The notes under the pieces were generated by a model. That model had not been told where the DNA came from. It did no database searches and worked only from the letters and a program-made list of their open reading frames with translations. A stretch of DNA of 35,960 bases from a virus (Duplodnaviria; Heunggongvirae; Uroviricota; Caudoviricetes): the IMG/VR virus record IMGVR_UViG_2541047842_000004; one strand, 5' to 3'. Positions 3,429 to 20,107 of this stretch are shown piece after piece; position 1 is the stretch's first letter, and every line of letters starts with the position of its first letter. Position numbers and translations under genes: made by a program.

Positions 3429-4210
3429 GCTGCCACCTTCTGTTCAGTGGCTTTTTGTTTCAGGAATCCAAGAGCTTTCACTGCTTCGTCCTGTGTCAGT
3501 TCTGACGATGCACGAATGTCGCGGCGAAATATCTGGGAACAGAGCGGCAATAAGTCGTCATCCCATGTTTTATCCAGGGCGATCAGCAGAGTGTTAATCT
3601 CCTGCATGGTTTCATCGTTAACCGGAGTGATGTCGCGTTCCGGCTGACGTTCTGCAGTGTATGCGGTATTTTCGACAATGCGCTCGGCTTCATCCTTGTC
3701 ATAGATACCAGCAAATCCGAAGGCGAGACGGGCACACTGAATCATGGCTTTATGCCGTAACATCCGTTTGGGATGCGACTGCCACGGCCCCGTGATTTCT
3801 CTGCCTTCGCGAGTTTTGAATGGTTCGCGGCGGCATTCATCCATCCATTCGGTAACGCAGATCGGATGATTACGGTCCTTGCGGTAAATCCGGCATGTAC
3901 AGGATTCATTGTCCTGCTCAAAGTCCATGCCATCAAACTGCTGGTTTTCATTGATGATGCGGGACCAGCCATCAACGCCCACCACCGGAACGATGCCGTT
4001 CTGCTTATCAGGGAAGGCGTAAATTTCTTTCGTCCACGGATTAAGGCCGTACTGGTTGGCGACGATCAACAATGCGATGAACTGCGCATCGCTGGCATCA
4101 CCTTTAAATGCCGTCTGGCGAAGAGTGGTGATCAGTTCCTGTGGGTCGACAGAATCCATGCCGACACGTTCAGCCAGCTTCCCTGCCAGCGTTGCGAGTG
4201 CTGTACTCAT
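3425..4210 (-). CDS. bet: Single-strand annealing protein Bet (Red beta)
   Basis: 261-aa product [37 protein letters not shown]... matches lambda Bet. Confidence 0.97.
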
Positions 4211-4215
4211 CCGTT

Positions 4216-4632
4216 TTATACCTCTGAATCAATATCAACCTGGTGGTGAGCAATGGTTTCAACCATGTACCGGATGTGTTCTGCCATGCGCTCCTGAAAC
4301 TCAACATCGTCATCAAACGCACGGGTAATGGCTTTTTTGCTGGCCCCGTGGCGTTGCAAATGATCGATGCATAGCGATTCAAACAGGTGCTGGGGCAGGC
4401 CTTTTTCCATGTCGTCTGCCAGTTCTGCCTCTTTCTCTTCACGGGCGATCTGCTGGTAGTGACGCGCCCAGCTCTGAGCCTCAAGACGATCCTGAATGTA
4501 ATAAGCGTTCATGGCTGAACTCCTGAAATAGCTGTGAAAATATCGCCCGCGAAATGCCGGGCTGATTAGGAAAACAGGAAAGGGGGTTAGTGAATGCTTT
4601 TGCTTGATCTCAGTTTCAGTATTAATATCCAT
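4216..4632 (-). CDS. gam: Gam, RecBCD inhibitor
   Basis: 138-aa product [61 protein letters not shown]... matches lambda GamL. Confidence 0.95.
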
Positions 4633-4730
4633 TTTTTATAAGCGTCGACGGCCTCACGAAACATCTTTTCATCGCCAATAAAAGTGGCGATAGTGAATTT
4701 AGTCTGGATAGCCATAAGTGTTTGATCCAT
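4587..4730 (-). CDS. kil: Kil (FtsZ-inhibiting host-killing protein)
   Basis: C-terminal 47 aa of the 89-aa track ORF ([47 protein letters not shown]) matches lambda Kil; overlaps the gam start and the cIII end as in lambda. Confidence 0.85.
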
Positions 4731-4863: not shown

Positions 4864-4935
4864 GGTGTGCTCCTTATTTATACATAACGAAAAACGCCTC
4901 GAGTGAAGCGTTATTGGTATGCGGTAACGCCGCGC

Positions 4936-5304
4936 TCAGGCGGCTTTGATAGTCATATCATCTGAATCAAATATTCCTGATGTATCGATATCGGTAATTC
5001 TTATTCCTTCGCTACCATCCATTGGAGGCCATCCTTCCTGACCATTTCCATCATTCCAGTCGAACTCACACACAACACCATATGCATTTAAGTCGCTTGA
5101 AATTGCTATAAGCAGAGCATGTTGCGCCAGCATGATTAATACAGCATTTAATACAGAGCCGTGTTTATTGAGTCGGTATTCAGAGTCTGACCAGAAATTA
5201 TTAATCTGGTGAAGTTTTTCCTCTGTCATTACGTCATGGTCGATTTCAATTTCTATTGATGCTTTCCAGTCGTAATCAATGATGTATTTTTTGATGTTTG
5301 ACAT
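4936..5304 (-). CDS. ea10: Ea10 (lambda early protein)
   Basis: 122-aa product MSNIKKYIIDYDWKASIEIEIDHDVMTEEKLHQINNFWSD... matches lambda Ea10; same spacing to cIII as in lambda. Confidence 0.8.
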   Translation of the reverse strand: MSNIKKYIIDYDWKASIEIEIDHDVMTEEKLHQINNFWSDSEYRLNKHGSVLNAVLIMLAQHALLIAISSDLNAYGVVCEFDWNDGNGQEGWPPMDGSEGIRITDIDTSGIFDSDDMTIKAA

Positions 5305-5321
5305 CTATTCATATCCTCACA

Positions 5322-5350
5322 GATAAAAAATCGCCCTCACATTGGAGGGC
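5322..5350 (-). terminator. Putative rho-independent terminator in the leftward operon (tL2-like position)
   Basis: Minus-strand hairpin GCCCTC-caatgt-GAGGGC followed by a TTTTTT run, just upstream of ea10. Confidence 0.4.
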
Positions 5351-5500
5351 AAAGAAGATTTCCAATAATCAGAACAAGTCGGCTCCTGTTTAGTTACGAG
5401 CGACATTGCTCAGTGTATTCACTCGTTGGAATGAATACACAGTGCAGTGTTTATTAGTATGCCTGTCTTTTAACCACATCAGGCTCGGTGGTTCTCGTGT

Positions 5501-5564: not shown

Positions 5565-7271
<1,707 letters not shown>

Positions 7272-9141: not shown

Positions 9142-9849
9142 TCATGAACTTTTCAGCCATTCCCTGGCCTCGATGTCATCTAGGTGGCGAGATTGCTTCA
9201 GAATACCAGCTACATACTCCACCTTTGCTACTTGATGATAAGGCAACGTTATTGGCCTGTGGTCTTGGTTGATGCTTGTAAATTGGTATTCTCCGTCTCT
9301 GTCATAGCCAAGAACCTTGATCATGTTGTGCCCTTCAATGGTTCTGACAAACACCTCATCACCTGGGAATACTTTGGTGTTAGGCTCAATGAGTACATAT
9401 TCTCCTGATTTTATTCTGGGCCACATGCTGTCTCCTTTTACACGAAGACCAAAGGCATCTGGATCATCGCTATAAATCTTGAGCCACCCATCGCGCTCTT
9501 CGGTCATCTCGATGGCACCATCAACACCAAGAATTGCCTCACCAACCACGCGCACTAACCCTTTTTTTAATTTGCCAACAATTGAAAAAGTATCTTCATC
9601 ATTCGCTCCATTTAACGAAGTGCCGTGCTGAAGCCAAACAACATCAACGTTTAGAAATTTCGCAAGCGCATTCATTTTTTCCTGGCGTGGTAAAGACTCA
9701 GCATTAAACCATTTGCTAACGCCTTTGGACGAAAGAGAAAGGGCACGGGCTATGGCCATTCCCCTACCATGTTCATCAAGACCAGCTTCTTTACAGGCTT
9801 GCGCTAGCCGCTGGGCGAATTCTTTGCGCACTTTTTCATTCTGAACCAT
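9142..9849 (-). CDS. cI: CI-type prophage repressor (N-terminal HTH plus C-terminal S24 LexA-like autopeptidase domain)
   Basis: 235-aa protein; C-terminal domain contains the GDSM serine motif and a downstream lysine (MIKVL) typical of LexA/CI autocleavage domains; divergently oriented to cro; sequence differs from lambda CI. Confidence 0.9.
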   Translation of the reverse strand: MVQNEKVRKEFAQRLAQACKEAGLDEHGRGMAIARALSLSSKGVSKWFNAESLPRQEKMNALAKFLNVDVVWLQHGTSLNGANDEDTFSIVGKLKKGLVRVVGEAILGVDGAIEMTEERDGWLKIYSDDPDAFGLRVKGDSMWPRIKSGEYVLIEPNTKVFPGDEVFVRTIEGHNMIKVLGYDRDGEYQFTSINQDHRPITLPYHQVAKVEYVAGILKQSRHLDDIEAREWLKSS

Positions 9850-14033: not shown

Positions 14034-14243
14034 CCCATCTCAATCCCTTCAATACCTGAAAGGAAGCATAGAGCGGGCTTCAATGTGCACAGAGTGGATT
14101 CTATCTAGGTTTAGCGCATACAGAAGATTGCCGGTAAAGGGCATGCCAAGCAAGTCGATGCTGCATATGCAAAAGAATGCGCGCGGGAAGGTATGGCGAG
14201 AACGCAGGTTATCTGGCTGAAAGAGGGGGTAATTAAGGCGTGA
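14026..14243 (+). pseudogene. Probable recombination scar: NinF-like 5' fragment joined out of frame to a ybcO-like (DUF1364) 3' fragment
   Basis: Frame from 14026 begins [19 protein letters not shown] (NinF-like N-terminus as recalled) then diverges; a different frame ends ...[31 protein letters not shown], resembling the YbcO C-terminus, with stop at 14241-14243 overlapping the rusA start. Confidence 0.4.
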
Positions 14244-14824: not shown

Positions 14825-15202
14825 ATGCGTGATATTCAGATGGTTCTTGAGCGTTGGGGAGCGTGGGCGGCTAATAATCATGAAGATGTGACCTGGTCGT
14901 CCATTGCCGCCGGTTTTAAGGGATTAATTCCTTCAAAAGTAAAATCTCGCCCGCAATGTTGTGACGATGACGCGATGATCATTTGCGGGTGCATGGCCCG
15001 TCTGAAAAATAACAACAGCGATTTGCATGATTTGTTAGTGGACTATTATGTCGGCGGCATGACTTTTATGGCGCTTGCGCGTAAGCATGGTAGATCTGAT
15101 TGTTGGATTGGCAGGATGCTCCAAAAAGCTGAGGGCGTAGTGGAGGGCATGCTGATGGTGTTGGATCTCAGATTGGAGATGGATGCTGATTGTTTGAGAT
15201 AA
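14825..15202 (+). CDS. Q: Late-gene antiterminator Q (phage 82 / DLP12 QuuD type)
   Basis: 125-aa product from ATG 14825: [60 protein letters not shown]...; resembles QuuD/Q82 as recalled; followed by a terminator. Confidence 0.85.
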
Positions 15203-15300
15203 TTAAAGGAAAAGTTGCTGTCTGGTTATCATTAGACTAATGTTTCAAATGTTAGAATCGCAACGTAGTTATGATCATATAACAGCTTGTTCCCTGATTT

Positions 15301-15330
15301 AGCCAGCCTCCCCAAAGGCTGGTTTTTTTT
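15301..15330 (+). terminator. tR'-like rho-independent terminator downstream of Q
   Basis: Hairpin AGCCAGCC-tccccaaa-GGCTGG followed by an 8-T run; in the position of lambdoid tR', where Q acts. Confidence 0.6.
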
Positions 15331-15358
15331 CTAATAAGTATCAATCCGGTTAGGTATT

Positions 15359-15883
15359 TTATTGTTTGACCCATAATAGTTCATTGACATTGAATCCCAA
15401 TTTTTGAGCAGTACGCACATAGTCTGCTTTTACATTATCTGGAATAGTTGGAGTCCGTGCCAGAATCCATAGGTATTCTCTGTTCGGACCACTGACAAGA
15501 GCATACTTATACTCATCATCCAGTTTGATTACATTATAGCCACCATAGAAGGGGCCAAAAAACGAAACCTTCAACGCTGCAGTTGTATTATCTCCTGTAA
15601 AGTATGCTTTACCTTCGCTCTCGCTCCATTTGTTTTTCGTTGGGTCATATCCACGATTAAGTACACTAATCCCTCCGTCGTTCCGTTTCCCATAAGTGGC
15701 GCTGACCTGTTCCAGACCACGTTCAAATCGGTTCTCAAGCCGAGCTATTTCATACCATTTTCCGAGGTAGCGGTTGGTGTCAAAATTTGTAATCGGCTGC
15801 ACACCTTTAGGTGGTGTCGGGGCCTTACATGCTATCAGAGTGAAAGAGAGTGCAATGCCAGTCAACACAGGCCATAACTTCAT
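15359..15883 (-). CDS. blc: Bacterial lipocalin (Blc-like outer-membrane lipoprotein)
   Basis: 174-aa product with a lipoprotein signal peptide and lipobox (LIAC) and lipocalin motifs (GKWYEIARLENRFERG, YFTGDNTTAALKVSFFGPFYGGYNVI); resembles E. coli Blc. Confidence 0.85.
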   Translation of the reverse strand: MKLWPVLTGIALSFTLIACKAPTPPKGVQPITNFDTNRYLGKWYEIARLENRFERGLEQVSATYGKRNDGGISVLNRGYDPTKNKWSESEGKAYFTGDNTTAALKVSFFGPFYGGYNVIKLDDEYKYALVSGPNREYLWILARTPTIPDNVKADYVRTAQKLGFNVNELLWVKQ

Positions 15884-16075
15884 AATATATCCTGTACTTT
15901 TGATAGTTGAGAGTAAGTATTAAAGATAGATGATTACTACCGATCACCTAAAGAACTTTCCTACTATATTAGGAATAGTCCATAACAAAAAAATTGTCAG
16001 TGATGACGGCAGAAAGGCAGTTTAGGTCGTGTACTACACTGTTAACCTGTTAATGAATTAGTCAAGGGGTAGGCA

Positions 16076-17035
16076 ATGATAAAAAAACCTGTCGTTGGGA
16101 TCAGTGGTTGTTTGGCCGGTTCTTCTGTCCGTTTTGATGGTGGTCACAAAAGAGCTAGCTTTTTAATGGACAAATTACTGGAATGGGTAACATTCAAACC
16201 AGTATGTCCGGAAATGGCTATAGGGCTTCCAGTTCCGCGTCCTGCTCTACGTCTTGTTCGCTCGGCGCAAGGAAATATACGGATGTGTTTCAGCCACGAC
16301 CAGAATGAGGATGTTACAGAGAAAATGACAGAGTTTAGTCGTTCTTATCTTGACAAATTAAAGGATGTATCGGGATTTGTGGTTTGTGCAAAATCTCCTA
16401 GCTGTGGTATGGAACGCGTGCGTGTATATGATGAAAATGGTAATCGTGGTCGTAAAGATGGAGTGGGACTATTTACGAGCACGTTGATGGAAAGGTTTTC
16501 CTGGCTACCGGTTGAAGAGGATGGGCGACTACATGATCCAGTGCTTCGTGAAAACTTTGTTGAAAGAGTATTTGCTTTACATGAGCTCAATCATCTTTAT
16601 AAAGCGAAATTATCAAGAAGGGAATTATTAGCTTTTCATAGCCGTTATAAGCTTCAGTTGTTGGCGCATAGCCAGGCCGGTTATAAAGAGATGGGGCCAT
16701 TTGTGGCTGCAATACATGAGTGGGCAGACCTTGAATCATACTTTGAGGTGTATCGTGAGAAGCTGATGGCGATTCTCAGAAAACCTGCATCACGTAAAAA
16801 TCACACGAATGTGCTGATGCATATACAGGGATATTTTAGTAACTGCTTAAATACACGTCAGCGTAAAGAGTTGAGCGATGTTATACTTAACTATCGAGCT
16901 GGCACGCTACCTCTTCTTGCGCCATTAACTTTGCTGAAGCATTACTTGGCAGAGTATCCTGATGATTATTTGCTTATACAGAATTACTTCCACCCCTATC
17001 CTGATGAACTGGCTCTAAGACTCTTGGTGAACTAG
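16076..17035 (+). CDS. DUF523 (TudS-like Cys-rich domain) fused to DUF1722 (YbgA-like) protein
   Basis: 319-aa product; N-terminal conserved cysteines (GISGCLAG..., PVCPEMAIGLP..., CAKSPSCGMERV) and a C-terminal YbgA-like region (…FHSRYKLQLLAHSQ…HTNVLMHIQGYF…). Domain assignment is by recollection. Confidence 0.75.
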   Translation: MIKKPVVGISGCLAGSSVRFDGGHKRASFLMDKLLEWVTFKPVCPEMAIGLPVPRPALRLVRSAQGNIRMCFSHDQNEDVTEKMTEFSRSYLDKLKDVSGFVVCAKSPSCGMERVRVYDENGNRGRKDGVGLFTSTLMERFSWLPVEEDGRLHDPVLRENFVERVFALHELNHLYKAKLSRRELLAFHSRYKLQLLAHSQAGYKEMGPFVAAIHEWADLESYFEVYREKLMAILRKPASRKNHTNVLMHIQGYFSNCLNTRQRKELSDVILNYRAGTLPLLAPLTLLKHYLAEYPDDYLLIQNYFHPYPDELALRLLVN

Positions 17036-17344
17036 GCGTTTGGAATGCACCAACAAGATGATTTTCTCCTTAGAGAATGTTTACAATCGTAAAAACTTCA
17101 CTATGATATCTATAGTTGTACAGTTTGTAAAAAAATTCGGTTCATGCTTAAGGTAATGTTAATATGTTAATTAATGATTAATAATCAAGCAAGCCAAAAA
17201 TAGTTCTGTTTAATCTAGTATTACATAAATATTTTAAAGAAAATATCAAAGTTCATGATGATATAATGAGATTTTTCTCATTGAAAATATGGCAATTTTA
17301 ATATTTCCACCTATACTTACTTAACTCAAATCTAATTATGTCAG

Positions 17345-18085
17345 GTGGATGGTATGCCATGCATATGTTCTATCATTTTGGTTTTGAACTCGTTTGATAT
17401 CCGGCTTGGTAAAGAAAAAATCTCTCTAAAAAAAGGAAGTGTTGTTGCTATAGAATACAATTTAAAAGTTTTCTTTTCTTCAAATAAAGATAATATAATG
17501 ATCGTGGATATTGAAGAGAAAACAGTTAATGACTTCTTTAAAAACAATACACTCTCACCTTTTTCTGTAAGAAGATTTTATTCAGCATACTTGATAGTAA
17601 ACTGTACAGACTATTCATTGTTAAAGAACTTGATAGGTTGCTTGAATTGTGATGGTGAAACTACGGCTGTAGTTAAAAATTCAATATTATTTGCATGTCT
17701 TGCTATTTTATCCTCGGAAAAAATGTTTCAGAGTTTTTTGTTTGGGTGTCTTAATAGTTTAGGAAGCAAAGTTAAGGCTATTATTCACTCGGACATATCT
17801 GCAGCATGGAGACTTTGTGATATTTCTTCAAGACTATGTCTGAGTGAAAGTTTGTTAAAAAGAAAACTAAAACACGAAGGCTTATCATTTAGCAAATTAA
17901 TTCTTGAAGAACGAATGGTGATGGCTGAAAGGTTATTAAGCTACAATTTCTATCCTGTTGGGAAAGTTGCTAAAATATGTGGTTATGAAAGCGCGTCATA
18001 TTTTATAAGTGTTTTCAGAAGATATTTTGGTGTTCCCCCCCATGAATATTCATCAAGATTTTTTTTAGAAAAAGGCAAGATGTAA
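17345..18085 (+). CDS. AraC/XylS-family transcriptional regulator (AppY/EnvY/Rns-like), start uncertain
   Basis: C-terminal AraC-type double HTH (…LCLSESLLKRKLKHEGLSFSKLILEERMVMAERLL… KVAKICGYESASYFISVFRRYFGVPPHEY); very AT-rich gene preceded by ~300 bp of AT-rich non-coding DNA. Confidence 0.75.
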   Translation: MDGMPCICSIILVLNSFDIRLGKEKISLKKGSVVAIEYNLKVFFSSNKDNIMIVDIEEKTVNDFFKNNTLSPFSVRRFYSAYLIVNCTDYSLLKNLIGCLNCDGETTAVVKNSILFACLAILSSEKMFQSFLFGCLNSLGSKVKAIIHSDISAAWRLCDISSRLCLSESLLKRKLKHEGLSFSKLILEERMVMAERLLSYNFYPVGKVAKICGYESASYFISVFRRYFGVPPHEYSSRFFLEKGKM

Positions 18086-18252
18086 CGTGATGCGTTTTGA
18101 TGATTTTGTAATTTTCATATTTGATGATTATATGATGCTTTCAGCTACGCCAGAATAATCGCTGGCGTTTTTCTTTTCTAATGTAACTTCTGTATCTTTC
18201 CCTCTTTCATTCCAAACCGTGTACACCATCCGTTATTCGCGGAGGTGAGGCT

Positions 18253-18468
18253 ATGAAATCCATGGACAAGTTAACAACGGGCATTGCCTACGGCACCTCT
18301 GCAGGCAGTGCTGGCTACTGGTTTTTACAGTGGCTTGATCAGGTCAGTCCGTCACAGTGGGCGGCGATTGGAGTGCTTGGAAGCCTTGTGTTGGGTTTTC
18401 TCACTTATCTGACAAACCTTTATTTCAAGATTAAAGAAGATAAGCGTAAGGCTGCGAGAGGTGAATAA
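18253..18468 (+). CDS. S: Holin, phage-21-type pinholin (class II) with dual-start motif
   Basis: 71-aa product [71 protein letters not shown] with Met1 and Met4 starts and two TM segments; resembles S21. Confidence 0.9.
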
Positions 18469-19454: not shown

Positions 19455-19748
19455 TTATTGTGAGCAATAGACACGCGCTTCCAGCGGAGTATAAATGCCT
19501 AAAGTAATAAAACCGAGCAATCCATTTACGAATGTTTGCTGGGTTTCTGTTTTAACAACATTTTCTGCGCCGCCACAAATTTTGGCTGCATCAACAGTTT
19601 TCTCCTGTCCAATTCCCGAAACGAAGAAGTGATGGGTGATGGTTTCCTTTGGTGTTACTGCTGTCGGTTTGTTTCCAACAGTAAACGTCTGTTGAGCACA
19701 TCCTGTAATAAGCATTGCCAGAGCGGCAGAAAACAACATTTTTTTCAT
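19455..19748 (-). CDS. bor: Bor lipoprotein (lysogenic-conversion serum-resistance factor)
   Basis: 97-aa product from MKKMLFSAALAMLITGCAQQTFTVGNKPTAVTPKETITHHFFVSGIGQEKTVDAAKICGG...; matches lambda Bor; lipobox ITGC. Confidence 0.9.
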   Translation of the reverse strand: MKKMLFSAALAMLITGCAQQTFTVGNKPTAVTPKETITHHFFVSGIGQEKTVDAAKICGGAENVVKTETQQTFVNGLLGFITLGIYTPLEARVYCSQ

Positions 19749-20107
19749 CTTATTATCCTGCATTGTTAAAAACGGCAGAATCCTATGTGACAACAATTAA
19801 ACGATAGTTAAATGGATTGATGAAAATTAAAACTATATAGGTGGATGCTCAGCCTATTGGAGGAGGGGGGCACTCAGAATCCTGTGGAATGAAATAAACC
19901 GCTCTTTCTGTCCATTACCCTTTTAGCTGCGCTGTATCGTCGCCGTATTCCCGCATTAACCATGACCGTAGCCCGACGGGGAATTCCTTCTGCGTGAGTG
20001 TGCGGGAATAATCAAAAACGATGCACACCGGGTTTTACTGTGCTGACAGACGCAGGGTTACCCTCATAGTCGCTTTTCCGGTGCGATGGTGGAAGAAACC
20101 GGGATGT

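Follow-up and report, generated by a model that had tools for sequence, protein, structure and literature searches.

Cargo genes lying between the late antiterminator gene Q and the holin gene S are well known in lambdoid phages, among them stx in the Shiga toxin (Stx) phages and nmpC in DLP12. Outside phages, another described system has a bearing on the locus analyzed here. The fusion of a TudS domain to a DUF1722 domain defines RudS, a [4Fe-4S] enzyme that converts 4-thiouridine of transfer RNA (tRNA s4U8/9) to uridine (PMC11417400). Both systems meet in a virus sequence of 35,960 nucleotides (IMG/VR record IMGVR_UViG_2541047842_000004; this whole stretch is called the window), in which three intact genes are located at positions 15331 to 18252, between Q with its tR'-like terminator and the holin gene (Table 1). 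They encode a lipocalin, a RudS protein and an AraC-family regulator. This island is a composite moron module of Escherichia coli lambdoid prophages in the Q-to-holin slot. Like stx and nmpC, it is bounded by Q/tR' and the holin, has an atypical base composition and possesses its own terminator. Its cargo sets it apart: where they encode a toxin or a porin, it has genes for a lipocalin, a regulator and an eraser of a tRNA modification, one of them antisense to late transcription.

Judged by its translated product, the central gene already has an assigned and experimentally tested biochemical function. The RudS of the window is identical over 319 of 319 amino acids (100%) to gp66 of Escherichia phage 1H12, 'RudS_vir' (locus tag H3V29_gp66, NC_049947), which is one of six RudS proteins tested by Jamontas et al. 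2024 (PMC11417400). Residues 7-149 match PF04463, once DUF523 and now named the 2-thiouracil desulfurase (TudS) family (E 3.6e-40), and residues 192-309 match PF08349 (E 1.3e-40). The protein thus has the TudS plus DUF1722 architecture of RudS_vir and its family, with the same three cysteines. Cys12, Cys44 and Cys110, given as the cluster ligands of RudS_vir in Table 1 of the paper (PMC11417400), do not vary among 14 orthologues, and neither do Glu46, Ser107 and Ser109; a catalytic role for Glu46 and Ser107/Ser109 is assigned by alignment only. Overexpression of RudS_vir in E. coli BL21(DE3) lowered tRNA s4U and gave the shortest lag on 4-thiouracil (PMC11417400), and RudS overexpression lessens the growth delay caused by ultraviolet A (UVA), as reported in the same paper. 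There, the gene was considered on its own; where it lies in the phage late region, that it has a lipocalin as partner and lacks MerR, and how frequent it is in E. coli were not described.

A first-pass annotation, made from the letters of the window, had correctly seen a DUF523-DUF1722 fusion; its identity as RudS, and the fact that this exact protein had already been tested, were missed. By its own standard, that annotation would be refuted if the island were a common, already characterized cassette; for the central gene this is largely the case, and roughly 20% of the complete E. coli genomes contain the block. The acid and envelope phenotypes it suggested are less apt than tRNA 4-thiouridine and near-ultraviolet (near-UV) stress.

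Two further occurrences of rudS were noted. BL21(DE3) (NZ_CP053602.1, retrieved stretch 6156-7019), the usual expression host and the one used in the published RudS assays, has a Qin-like prophage in which the phage lipocalin gene is intact and rudS has been truncated by IS3 after codon 49. In Salmonella enterica serovar Derby and in a metagenome contig, a 74%-identical rudS (6001-6960 and 3704-4663 of the retrieved stretches) lies between ttcA and a DUF1367/uspF segment, with an integrase fragment beside it and no lipocalin. This is apparently another mobile context, distinct from the copy in Salmonella pathogenicity island 2 (ORF319/STM1389) known from the literature.

The gene divergent from rudS encodes a lipoprotein of the Blc type. 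It scores 315.5 bits against the NCBIfam Blc model NF007786, above the curated cutoff of 267, and 235 bits against E. coli Blc (PDB 3MBT). The N-terminus reads MKLWPVLTGIALSFTLIAC-K, with a lipobox LIAC at residues 16-19 and a lysine at +2; a residue other than aspartate at this position sorts a lipoprotein to the outer membrane. The fold family, the length, and the lipoprotein signal peptide with its lipobox are those of E. coli Blc (PDB 1QWD, 2ACO, 3MBT), and by homology the protein would be expected to bind lysophospholipids or fatty acids. Compared to the chromosomal Blc of E. coli and Salmonella, however, it is a paralogue, about 60% identical, which is phage-borne and paired with rudS rather than located at the chromosomal blc locus.

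The closest relatives of the pair were found in enterobacterial chromosomes, whose neighborhoods were examined by single-contig look-ups and in 80 genome loci. Across Enterobacterales, chromosomal RudS orthologues are 72-76% identical to the phage RudS, and lipocalin relatives are 74-82% identical to the phage lipocalin. Two main contexts occur in the RudS clade nearest to the phage protein. In the first, encountered in Citrobacter, Klebsiella, Pseudescherichia and part of Serratia, rudS closes a long operon (SnoaL, short-chain dehydrogenase/reductase (SDR), amine oxidase, DUF1365, cyclopropane-fatty-acid synthase, DUF2878, chalcone-isomerase-like, DUF3833, rudS); the chromosomal RudS proteins closest to that of the phage, at 72-76% identity, are encoded at the end of this operon. 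In Cedecea lapagei, this operon is headed by a MerR gene, with the lipocalin gene divergent from it. In the second, the lipocalin gene is divergent from merR followed by rudS, with a transthyretin-like gene (ttr) between these two in some cases. It is represented by nine species of Enterobacter and Leclercia, by Serratia rubidaea and by a Joint Genome Institute (JGI) contig, and the lipocalins closest to that of the phage, 75-82% identical, belong to it. Huaxiibacter has the lipocalin gene divergent from ttr-rudS, and in Kluyvera cryocrescens the lipocalin and rudS genes diverge directly, 115 bp apart and without an intervening regulator; their chromosomal surroundings are ordinary (pseudouridine synthase, helicase, nucleoid-associated protein and a sulfatase-family gene as flanks). 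The first-pass guess that the lipocalin and the DUF523 protein form a unit gains support from these chromosomes (Enterobacter, Leclercia, Serratia, Kluyvera, Huaxiibacter), because the divergent synteny is conserved far outside phages.

With the same two genes, the same divergent orientation and 72-82% amino-acid identity, these comparisons show at the sequence level that the phage pair shares ancestry with the chromosomal MerR-linked loci. On the other hand, the phage copy lacks both the MerR gene, whose chromosomal products have MlrA-like domains (PF13411, MlrA_helical and MlrA_C), and the transthyretin-like gene; its spacer is not alignable, and it sits in a Q-dependent late operon with an AraC gene after it. 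No MerR open reading frame (ORF) was found in or near the phage island, either in the ORF listing or in the RefSeq annotation. MerR/LitR-linked RudS loci have been described as light-responsive, with the lipocalin unmentioned in the main text (PMC11417400); the phage cassette is related to these loci but is not itself a member.

The 192-bp region between the two phage genes is 90.5% identical between the two main alleles. In blastn comparisons of this phage region with the chromosomal lipocalin-merR/ttr-rudS spacers, matches were obtained in coding regions only, and local alignments to six chromosomal spacers gave z-scores of -0.2 to 3.0, not significant against shuffled sequences. One 29-nt stretch (TTCnTAnTATATT...) is matched in chromosomal spacers at the same offset from the lipocalin ATG. 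As the intergenic DNA is not alignable, a deletion removing merR could not be reconstructed. DNA similarity to the chromosomal loci is confined to the coding regions, and the donor of the phage pair is absent from the sample. A 175-aa gene of the Citrobacter/Klebsiella operon was considered as a possible lipocalin gene and rejected, as it gave only a weak chalcone-isomerase-like match and no tblastn hit. This gene (about 4930-5460 of the retrieved stretches) is conserved in the rudS operon of Citrobacter, Klebsiella and Serratia; it is uncharacterized and has no Pfam match above threshold.

The block is widespread in E. coli. A megablast census of 5,426 complete genomes (coverage of at least 80%) detected full-length rudS DNA in 1,064 genomes, the lipocalin gene in 1,042, the whole block in 683, and the AraC allele of the window with its 83-87% relatives in 676. 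E. coli has been said to be without RudS (PMC11417400; reviews up to 2026 say likewise), a statement that is contradicted by the 1,064 genomes. Genomes matched over query positions 1-1950 formed a 'lipocalin and rudS only' class, for which loss of the AraC gene was considered and rejected: part of the class consists of defective prophages adjoining bio/ybhB in which IS1 interrupts the block immediately behind rudS, and the rest are Qin-type prophages with an AraC allele that is 77% identical in protein and too diverged for megablast. The gene order is kept in three prophage lineages. One is intact and lambda-like and adjoins icd in a near-identical strain, another is defective and adjacent to bio/ybhB, and the third is of the Qin type; the AraC alleles of the three lineages have 100%, 83% and 77% identity. 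Twelve deposited complete phage genomes carry the block, eleven of them from infant-gut coliphages and the last from phage IdasGreatGrand; blc was already given as a moron in more than half of the lambda-like phages of the infant-gut coliphage collection (PMC6969025).

Whether the three genes travel together had been left as a check by the first-pass annotation, and they do: besides the three lineages, the order Q, lipocalin (minus strand), rudS, AraC, holin, endolysin was observed in about 74 of 80 IMG/VR viral contigs picked by RudS similarity. Within this sample, the lipocalin gene is full-length in 79 loci and lipocalin and RudS are both full-length in 79-80, while about 15 have an AraC gene with a frameshift, stop or truncation, and one locus whose flanks are intact has none. 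A comparison of the two main alleles gave ratios of nonsynonymous to synonymous substitution rates (dN/dS) of 0.07-0.11 (lipocalin), 0.11 (RudS) and 0.25 (AraC), at dS values of 0.2-0.37. The three genes move as a block, in which lipocalin and rudS are well preserved and the regulator is labile. Two contigs of metagenome-assembled genomes (MAGs) also contain related genes: JARKOR010000151.1 ('Candidatus Nanosynbacter') has an E. coli-prophage rudS and AraC gene, 88% and 82% identical, and URSI01000001.1 ('uncultured Clostridiales') has an SDR...rudS operon of the Klebsiella/Citrobacter type. Both look like mis-binned enterobacterial contigs.

The third gene encodes an AraC-family protein. Its ORF (17345-18085) opens at a GTG at 17345; the ATG at 17354, which is the RefSeq start, is the more likely one. 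The best NCBIfam matches, YdeO (112.7 bits, cutoff 348) and GadX (98.9 bits, cutoff 500), are far below both curated cutoffs, which do not support orthology to a named member, and sequence comparison points to a paralogue of the YdeO/GadX/PatE group. The protein is 53% identical to ECs_0287 of the Sakai prophage Sp1, which is probably PatE (Z0321), judging from its position in Sp1 and the correspondence of Sp1 to CP-933H. PatE is a prophage AraC-like activator of acid-resistance genes, and both PatE and PsrB act on host genes of this kind. The predicted structure (mean predicted local distance difference test score, pLDDT, of 74.5) matches the full-length Rns, CsvR and ToxT class, and the DNA-binding domain of the model superposes on GadX (3MKL) at 1.3-1.6 Å with 42% identity. 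The family is narrow: a search of 5.8 billion proteins gave 24 clusters, and all source names among those listed are E. coli. One paralogue, 62% identical, stands alone directly after a lambda-type Q in another prophage, and a paralogue is also found after the tail-fibre genes of phage mEp332.

With the prophage AraC-like regulators PatE, PsrA/PsrB and AppY, and with the host proteins YdeO and GadX, the island protein has in common a C-terminal domain with two helix-turn-helix (HTH) motifs and a length of about 245 aa. Like the prophage regulators, its gene is AT-rich and prophage-borne, and the model predicts a similar Rns/ToxT-like overall fold. Unlike YdeO and GadX, it is far below the equivalog cutoffs and belongs to a narrow family of E. 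coli prophages. Because of its base composition, its frequent decay and its stand-alone paralogues, the AraC gene is probably a separately acquired moron, apart from the lipocalin/rudS pair, and its product probably acts on host genes rather than as a dedicated regulator of the pair. Identity with orf10 of phiv142-3, a prophage of avian pathogenic E. coli (APEC) in which this gene is a serum-resistance/capsule regulator (PMC7724020), was considered and rejected, as the published deletion-primer arms are absent from the window.

The window is a lambda-like prophage, 99.996-100% identical to the prophage adjoining icd in E. coli 2017C-4173W12, and from position 9203 on it matches the right arm of the complete Escherichia phage 1H12 genome (Jouyvirus) with 99.97% identity. 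The gene order is rusA, ylcG, Q, the island, class II holin, endolysin, Rz and a Bor/Iss lipoprotein gene. On the left, the Q DNA is 87% identical to K-12 quuD up to about 15184, where the homology to the DLP12 gene ends. On the right, homology to phage 21 S and to many other phages resumes at about 18222, ~30 bp ahead of the holin ATG. The recombination module, from about 15185 to about 18221, includes the 3' end of Q and the tR' region. In related phages, the same slot between Q/tR' and the lysis cassette holds other cargo, and the gene order together with the quuD and S homology limits identifies the island as a moron.

These limits agree with the first-pass view of the genes as cargo of the Q-to-S slot, and the three genes, their flanks, the 192-bp region and the AT-rich spacers all stand where that annotation had placed them, according to the ORF listing, Pfam and RefSeq. 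The guanine-plus-cytosine (GC) content is 35% in the 192-bp spacer, 27% in the 318-bp spacer, about 43% in the lipocalin and rudS genes and 31% in the AraC gene, compared to 50.5% for the whole window. No tRNA genes were found in the slot, a search for non-coding RNAs there gave one Rfam match, far below threshold and sitting on the terminator, and PADLOC gave no hits to known anti-phage defence proteins.

Table 1. Coordinates of the island and its flanking features in the window.
Feature	Position	Strand	Size	Evidence or remark
Late antiterminator Q, QuuD-like (left flank)	14825..15202 (14810 alternative start)	+		PF06530, Pfam E 2.5e-51; RefSeq 'antiterminator Q family protein'
Q-to-terminator leader; late promoter pR' and Q-utilisation site expected here (putative)	15203..15300	+		Candidate extended -10 TGtTAGAAT, 15250-15258, by eye
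tR'-like intrinsic terminator	15301..15334	+ only		9-bp GC-rich stem 15301-15324, 6-nt loop, then eight T; 99 bp after Q
Blc-type outer-membrane lipocalin lipoprotein	15359..15883	-	174 aa	Pfam Lipocalin_2, E 2e-43
Divergent intergenic region, presumed promoters of lipocalin and rudS	15884..16075		192 bp	No MerR gene here
rudS, tRNA 4-thiouridine desulfidase, TudS [4Fe-4S] domain and DUF1722 tRNA-binding domain	16076..17035	+	319 aa	PF04463 and PF08349
AT-rich spacer upstream of AraC gene	17036..17353			74-78% identical between alleles
AraC/XylS-family regulator, YdeO/GadX/PatE prophage group	17354..18085	+	243 aa	Pfam HTH_18/HTH_AraC (PF12833, PF00165)
Second intrinsic terminator	18147-18168 (18147..18178 with tail)	+		7-bp stem (5 GC), 8-nt loop, T-rich tail; 75 bp before holin start
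Class II holin, phage 21 S type (right flank)	18253..18468	+		Pfam Phage_holin_2_1, E 3e-35, and RefSeq

Two intrinsic terminators bracket the island. The tR'-like hairpin folds with -21.3 kcal/mol (z -4.2; none of 200 shuffled sequences folds as well) and is kept in 79 of the 80 IMG/VR loci. In the databases searched, the leader segment between Q and this hairpin was found solely together with the lipocalin gene, and the tR' segment likewise was never found without it. The second terminator, kept in 59 of the 80 loci, lies in island-specific DNA, since homology to other phages begins only at about 18222. No strong plus-strand terminator is present between the two. In the spacer upstream of the AraC gene, promoter-like hexamers are located at 17080-17107 and 17289-17317, at a frequency that corresponds to chance, and the short repeats common to both island intergenic regions, examined as possible regulator sites, are at chance level only. 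The tails of the two terminators have a 13-nt string in common (15323-15335 and 18170-18182; TTTTTTTTCTAAT / TTTCTTTTCTAAT), which may have arisen by chance in such T-rich DNA or may be left over from the insertion of the block. RNA polymerase modified by Q ignores terminators. The first-pass annotation had all three genes read by Q-antiterminated late transcription; in the sense direction this is possible for rudS and araC, whereas the lipocalin gene would be read antisense.

On balance, the block is probably lysogenic-conversion cargo that lowers the s4U content of tRNA and the sensitivity to UVA, with the divergent lipocalin/rudS cassette as its core and the AraC gene acquired separately. 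We infer the following pattern of expression and physiological benefit. In the lysogen, the island genes would be transcribed from their own promoters, and the terminator at 18147 would stop these transcripts, so that the lysis genes stay silent. RudS would lower the s4U of the host tRNA. As s4U8 is the near-UV chromophore of tRNA, whose cross-link with C13 leads to the accumulation of uncharged tRNA, to guanosine tetraphosphate (ppGpp) and to growth delay, fewer UVA-induced s4U-C13 cross-links would mean less accumulation of uncharged tRNA and less growth delay. In the outer membrane, the lipocalin would take care of damaged lipids or lyso-lipids. Once the prophage is induced, RNA polymerase modified by Q would pass tR', whereby rudS and araC would join the late transcript and the lipocalin gene would be read antisense. 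The presence of intact rudS and lipocalin genes in non-inducible remnants argues for a benefit on the host side. Several points weigh against such cargo. The primary habitat of E. coli is dark, so that a UVA benefit would arise only in secondary habitats, and RudS_vir gave a smaller drop in s4U than other RudS proteins despite good protein levels (PMC11417400). Loss of s4U can destabilize some tRNAs, and for this reason constitutive rudS expression could be costly. A consensus promoter scan found 12 promoter-like sites against 11.0 +/- 3.3 expected in shuffled sequence, which is chance level, and the intergenic DNA is not recognizably homologous to the chromosomal regulatory regions. Finally, tight linkage within a 3-kb recombination module could explain the co-inheritance without a shared function.

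The chief rival explanation moves the role of RudS to the lytic cycle and is considered unlikely. In this case, rudS would mainly be an auxiliary gene, whose product, made from the Q-dependent late transcript, erases the s4U of host tRNA and lets late-protein synthesis escape the UVA/stringent 'growth delay' checkpoint, or re-tunes the tRNA pool otherwise, and the lipocalin would be a passenger from the donor locus. The co-orientation of rudS and araC with the late operon, between tR' and S and with no strong plus-strand terminator until 18147, would suit such a role, as would the constant association of Q allele, tR' segment and island and the presence of the block in complete phage genomes. 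Moreover, the sunlight that induces prophages also contains UVA, and the lessening of UVA growth delay by RudS overexpression (PMC11417400) fits as well. Against a lytic role, intact rudS and lipocalin genes persist in degraded prophages (bio-adjacent and Qin-type remnants, in hundreds of genomes) with a dN/dS of about 0.1, the lipocalin is intact in 79 of 80 loci although antisense to late transcription, and RudS would have to act fast enough within the latent period. A combined version, in which a tRNA eraser was placed under late control by Q, s4U is stripped after induction and late translation becomes blind to the near-UV/stringent checkpoint, with a low, MerR-free level altering the UVA response of lysogens, is regarded as just as doubtful. 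On that view, about one E. coli strain in five would have a tRNA pool poorer in s4U, and differences between strains in tRNA s4U and sunlight survival would be a prophage trait.

Still less probable is that the AraC protein replaces the missing MerR as a dedicated regulator of lipocalin and rudS, the three genes being one regulatory unit. The linkage in three prophage lineages with AraC alleles 100%, 83% and 77% identical speaks for it, as does the regulator that always adjoins the chromosomal relatives of the pair, although the Kluyvera pair is MerR-less. However, paralogues with 52-62% identity occur by themselves in other prophages, which have neither lipocalin nor rudS, and the characterized relatives PatE and PsrB act on host acid-resistance genes. 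The gene also differs from the pair in base composition and evolves faster (31% GC, dN/dS 0.25), it is broken in about 15 of 80 loci in which the pair is intact and absent in one, and no repeated motif is common to both intergenic regions. Least expected of all is a neutral hitch-hiker inside the Q-pR'-tR'...S recombination module, with no effect on host or phage. That the block always moves as one with a particular Q allele, has no known phenotype and contains an AraC gene decaying in a sizeable minority of loci would be understandable on these terms. It is made less probable by purifying selection (dN/dS 0.07-0.11 for the lipocalin and 0.11 for RudS, with dS up to 0.3), by full-length lipocalin and RudS in 79-80 of 80 loci, defective prophages included, and by the activity of the RudS_vir enzyme.

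In several respects, the island is already known: it is a moron of a known kind in a known slot, its enzyme is the published RudS_vir, its lipocalin is an already listed moron, and its regulator is a paralogue of known prophage AraC-like proteins. What appears to be unreported in the literature searched is the conserved partnership of lipocalin and rudS, related by descent to chromosomal MerR-linked loci, the lack of MerR in the phage copy, and the finding that about one in five complete E. coli genomes contains the block. This is a useful correction and a testable lead rather than a new kind of system. RudS is among the very few bacterial tRNA 'eraser' enzymes, and the tested 'viral' RudS turns out to be carried by a prophage module that is very common in E. 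coli and has a conserved lipocalin partner and no MerR. Questions on s4U content, UVA growth delay and sunlight survival in water among natural E. coli lysogens thereby become meaningful, as does that of what a temperate phage gains from erasing a host tRNA modification in lytic growth.

Some features of the window outside the island were also noted. The sole difference from the 2017C-4173W12 prophage is an IS5 element at 6078-7271 (with a 338-aa InsH-type transposase, 6109-7125), absent from that prophage. It is located at the 3' end of the superinfection-exclusion gene sieB, whose ORF has 179 aa in the window compared to 193 aa in 2017C-4173W12. Just upstream of rusA, the RefSeq annotation gives a truncated DUF1364 (ybcO-like) pseudogene at 14154-14243; the nin region therefore has a small deletion relative to DLP12-type prophages. 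The gene of the Bor/Iss serum-resistance lipoprotein (19455-19796, minus strand), directly after Rz/Rz1, is a second, well-known moron of the same late region.

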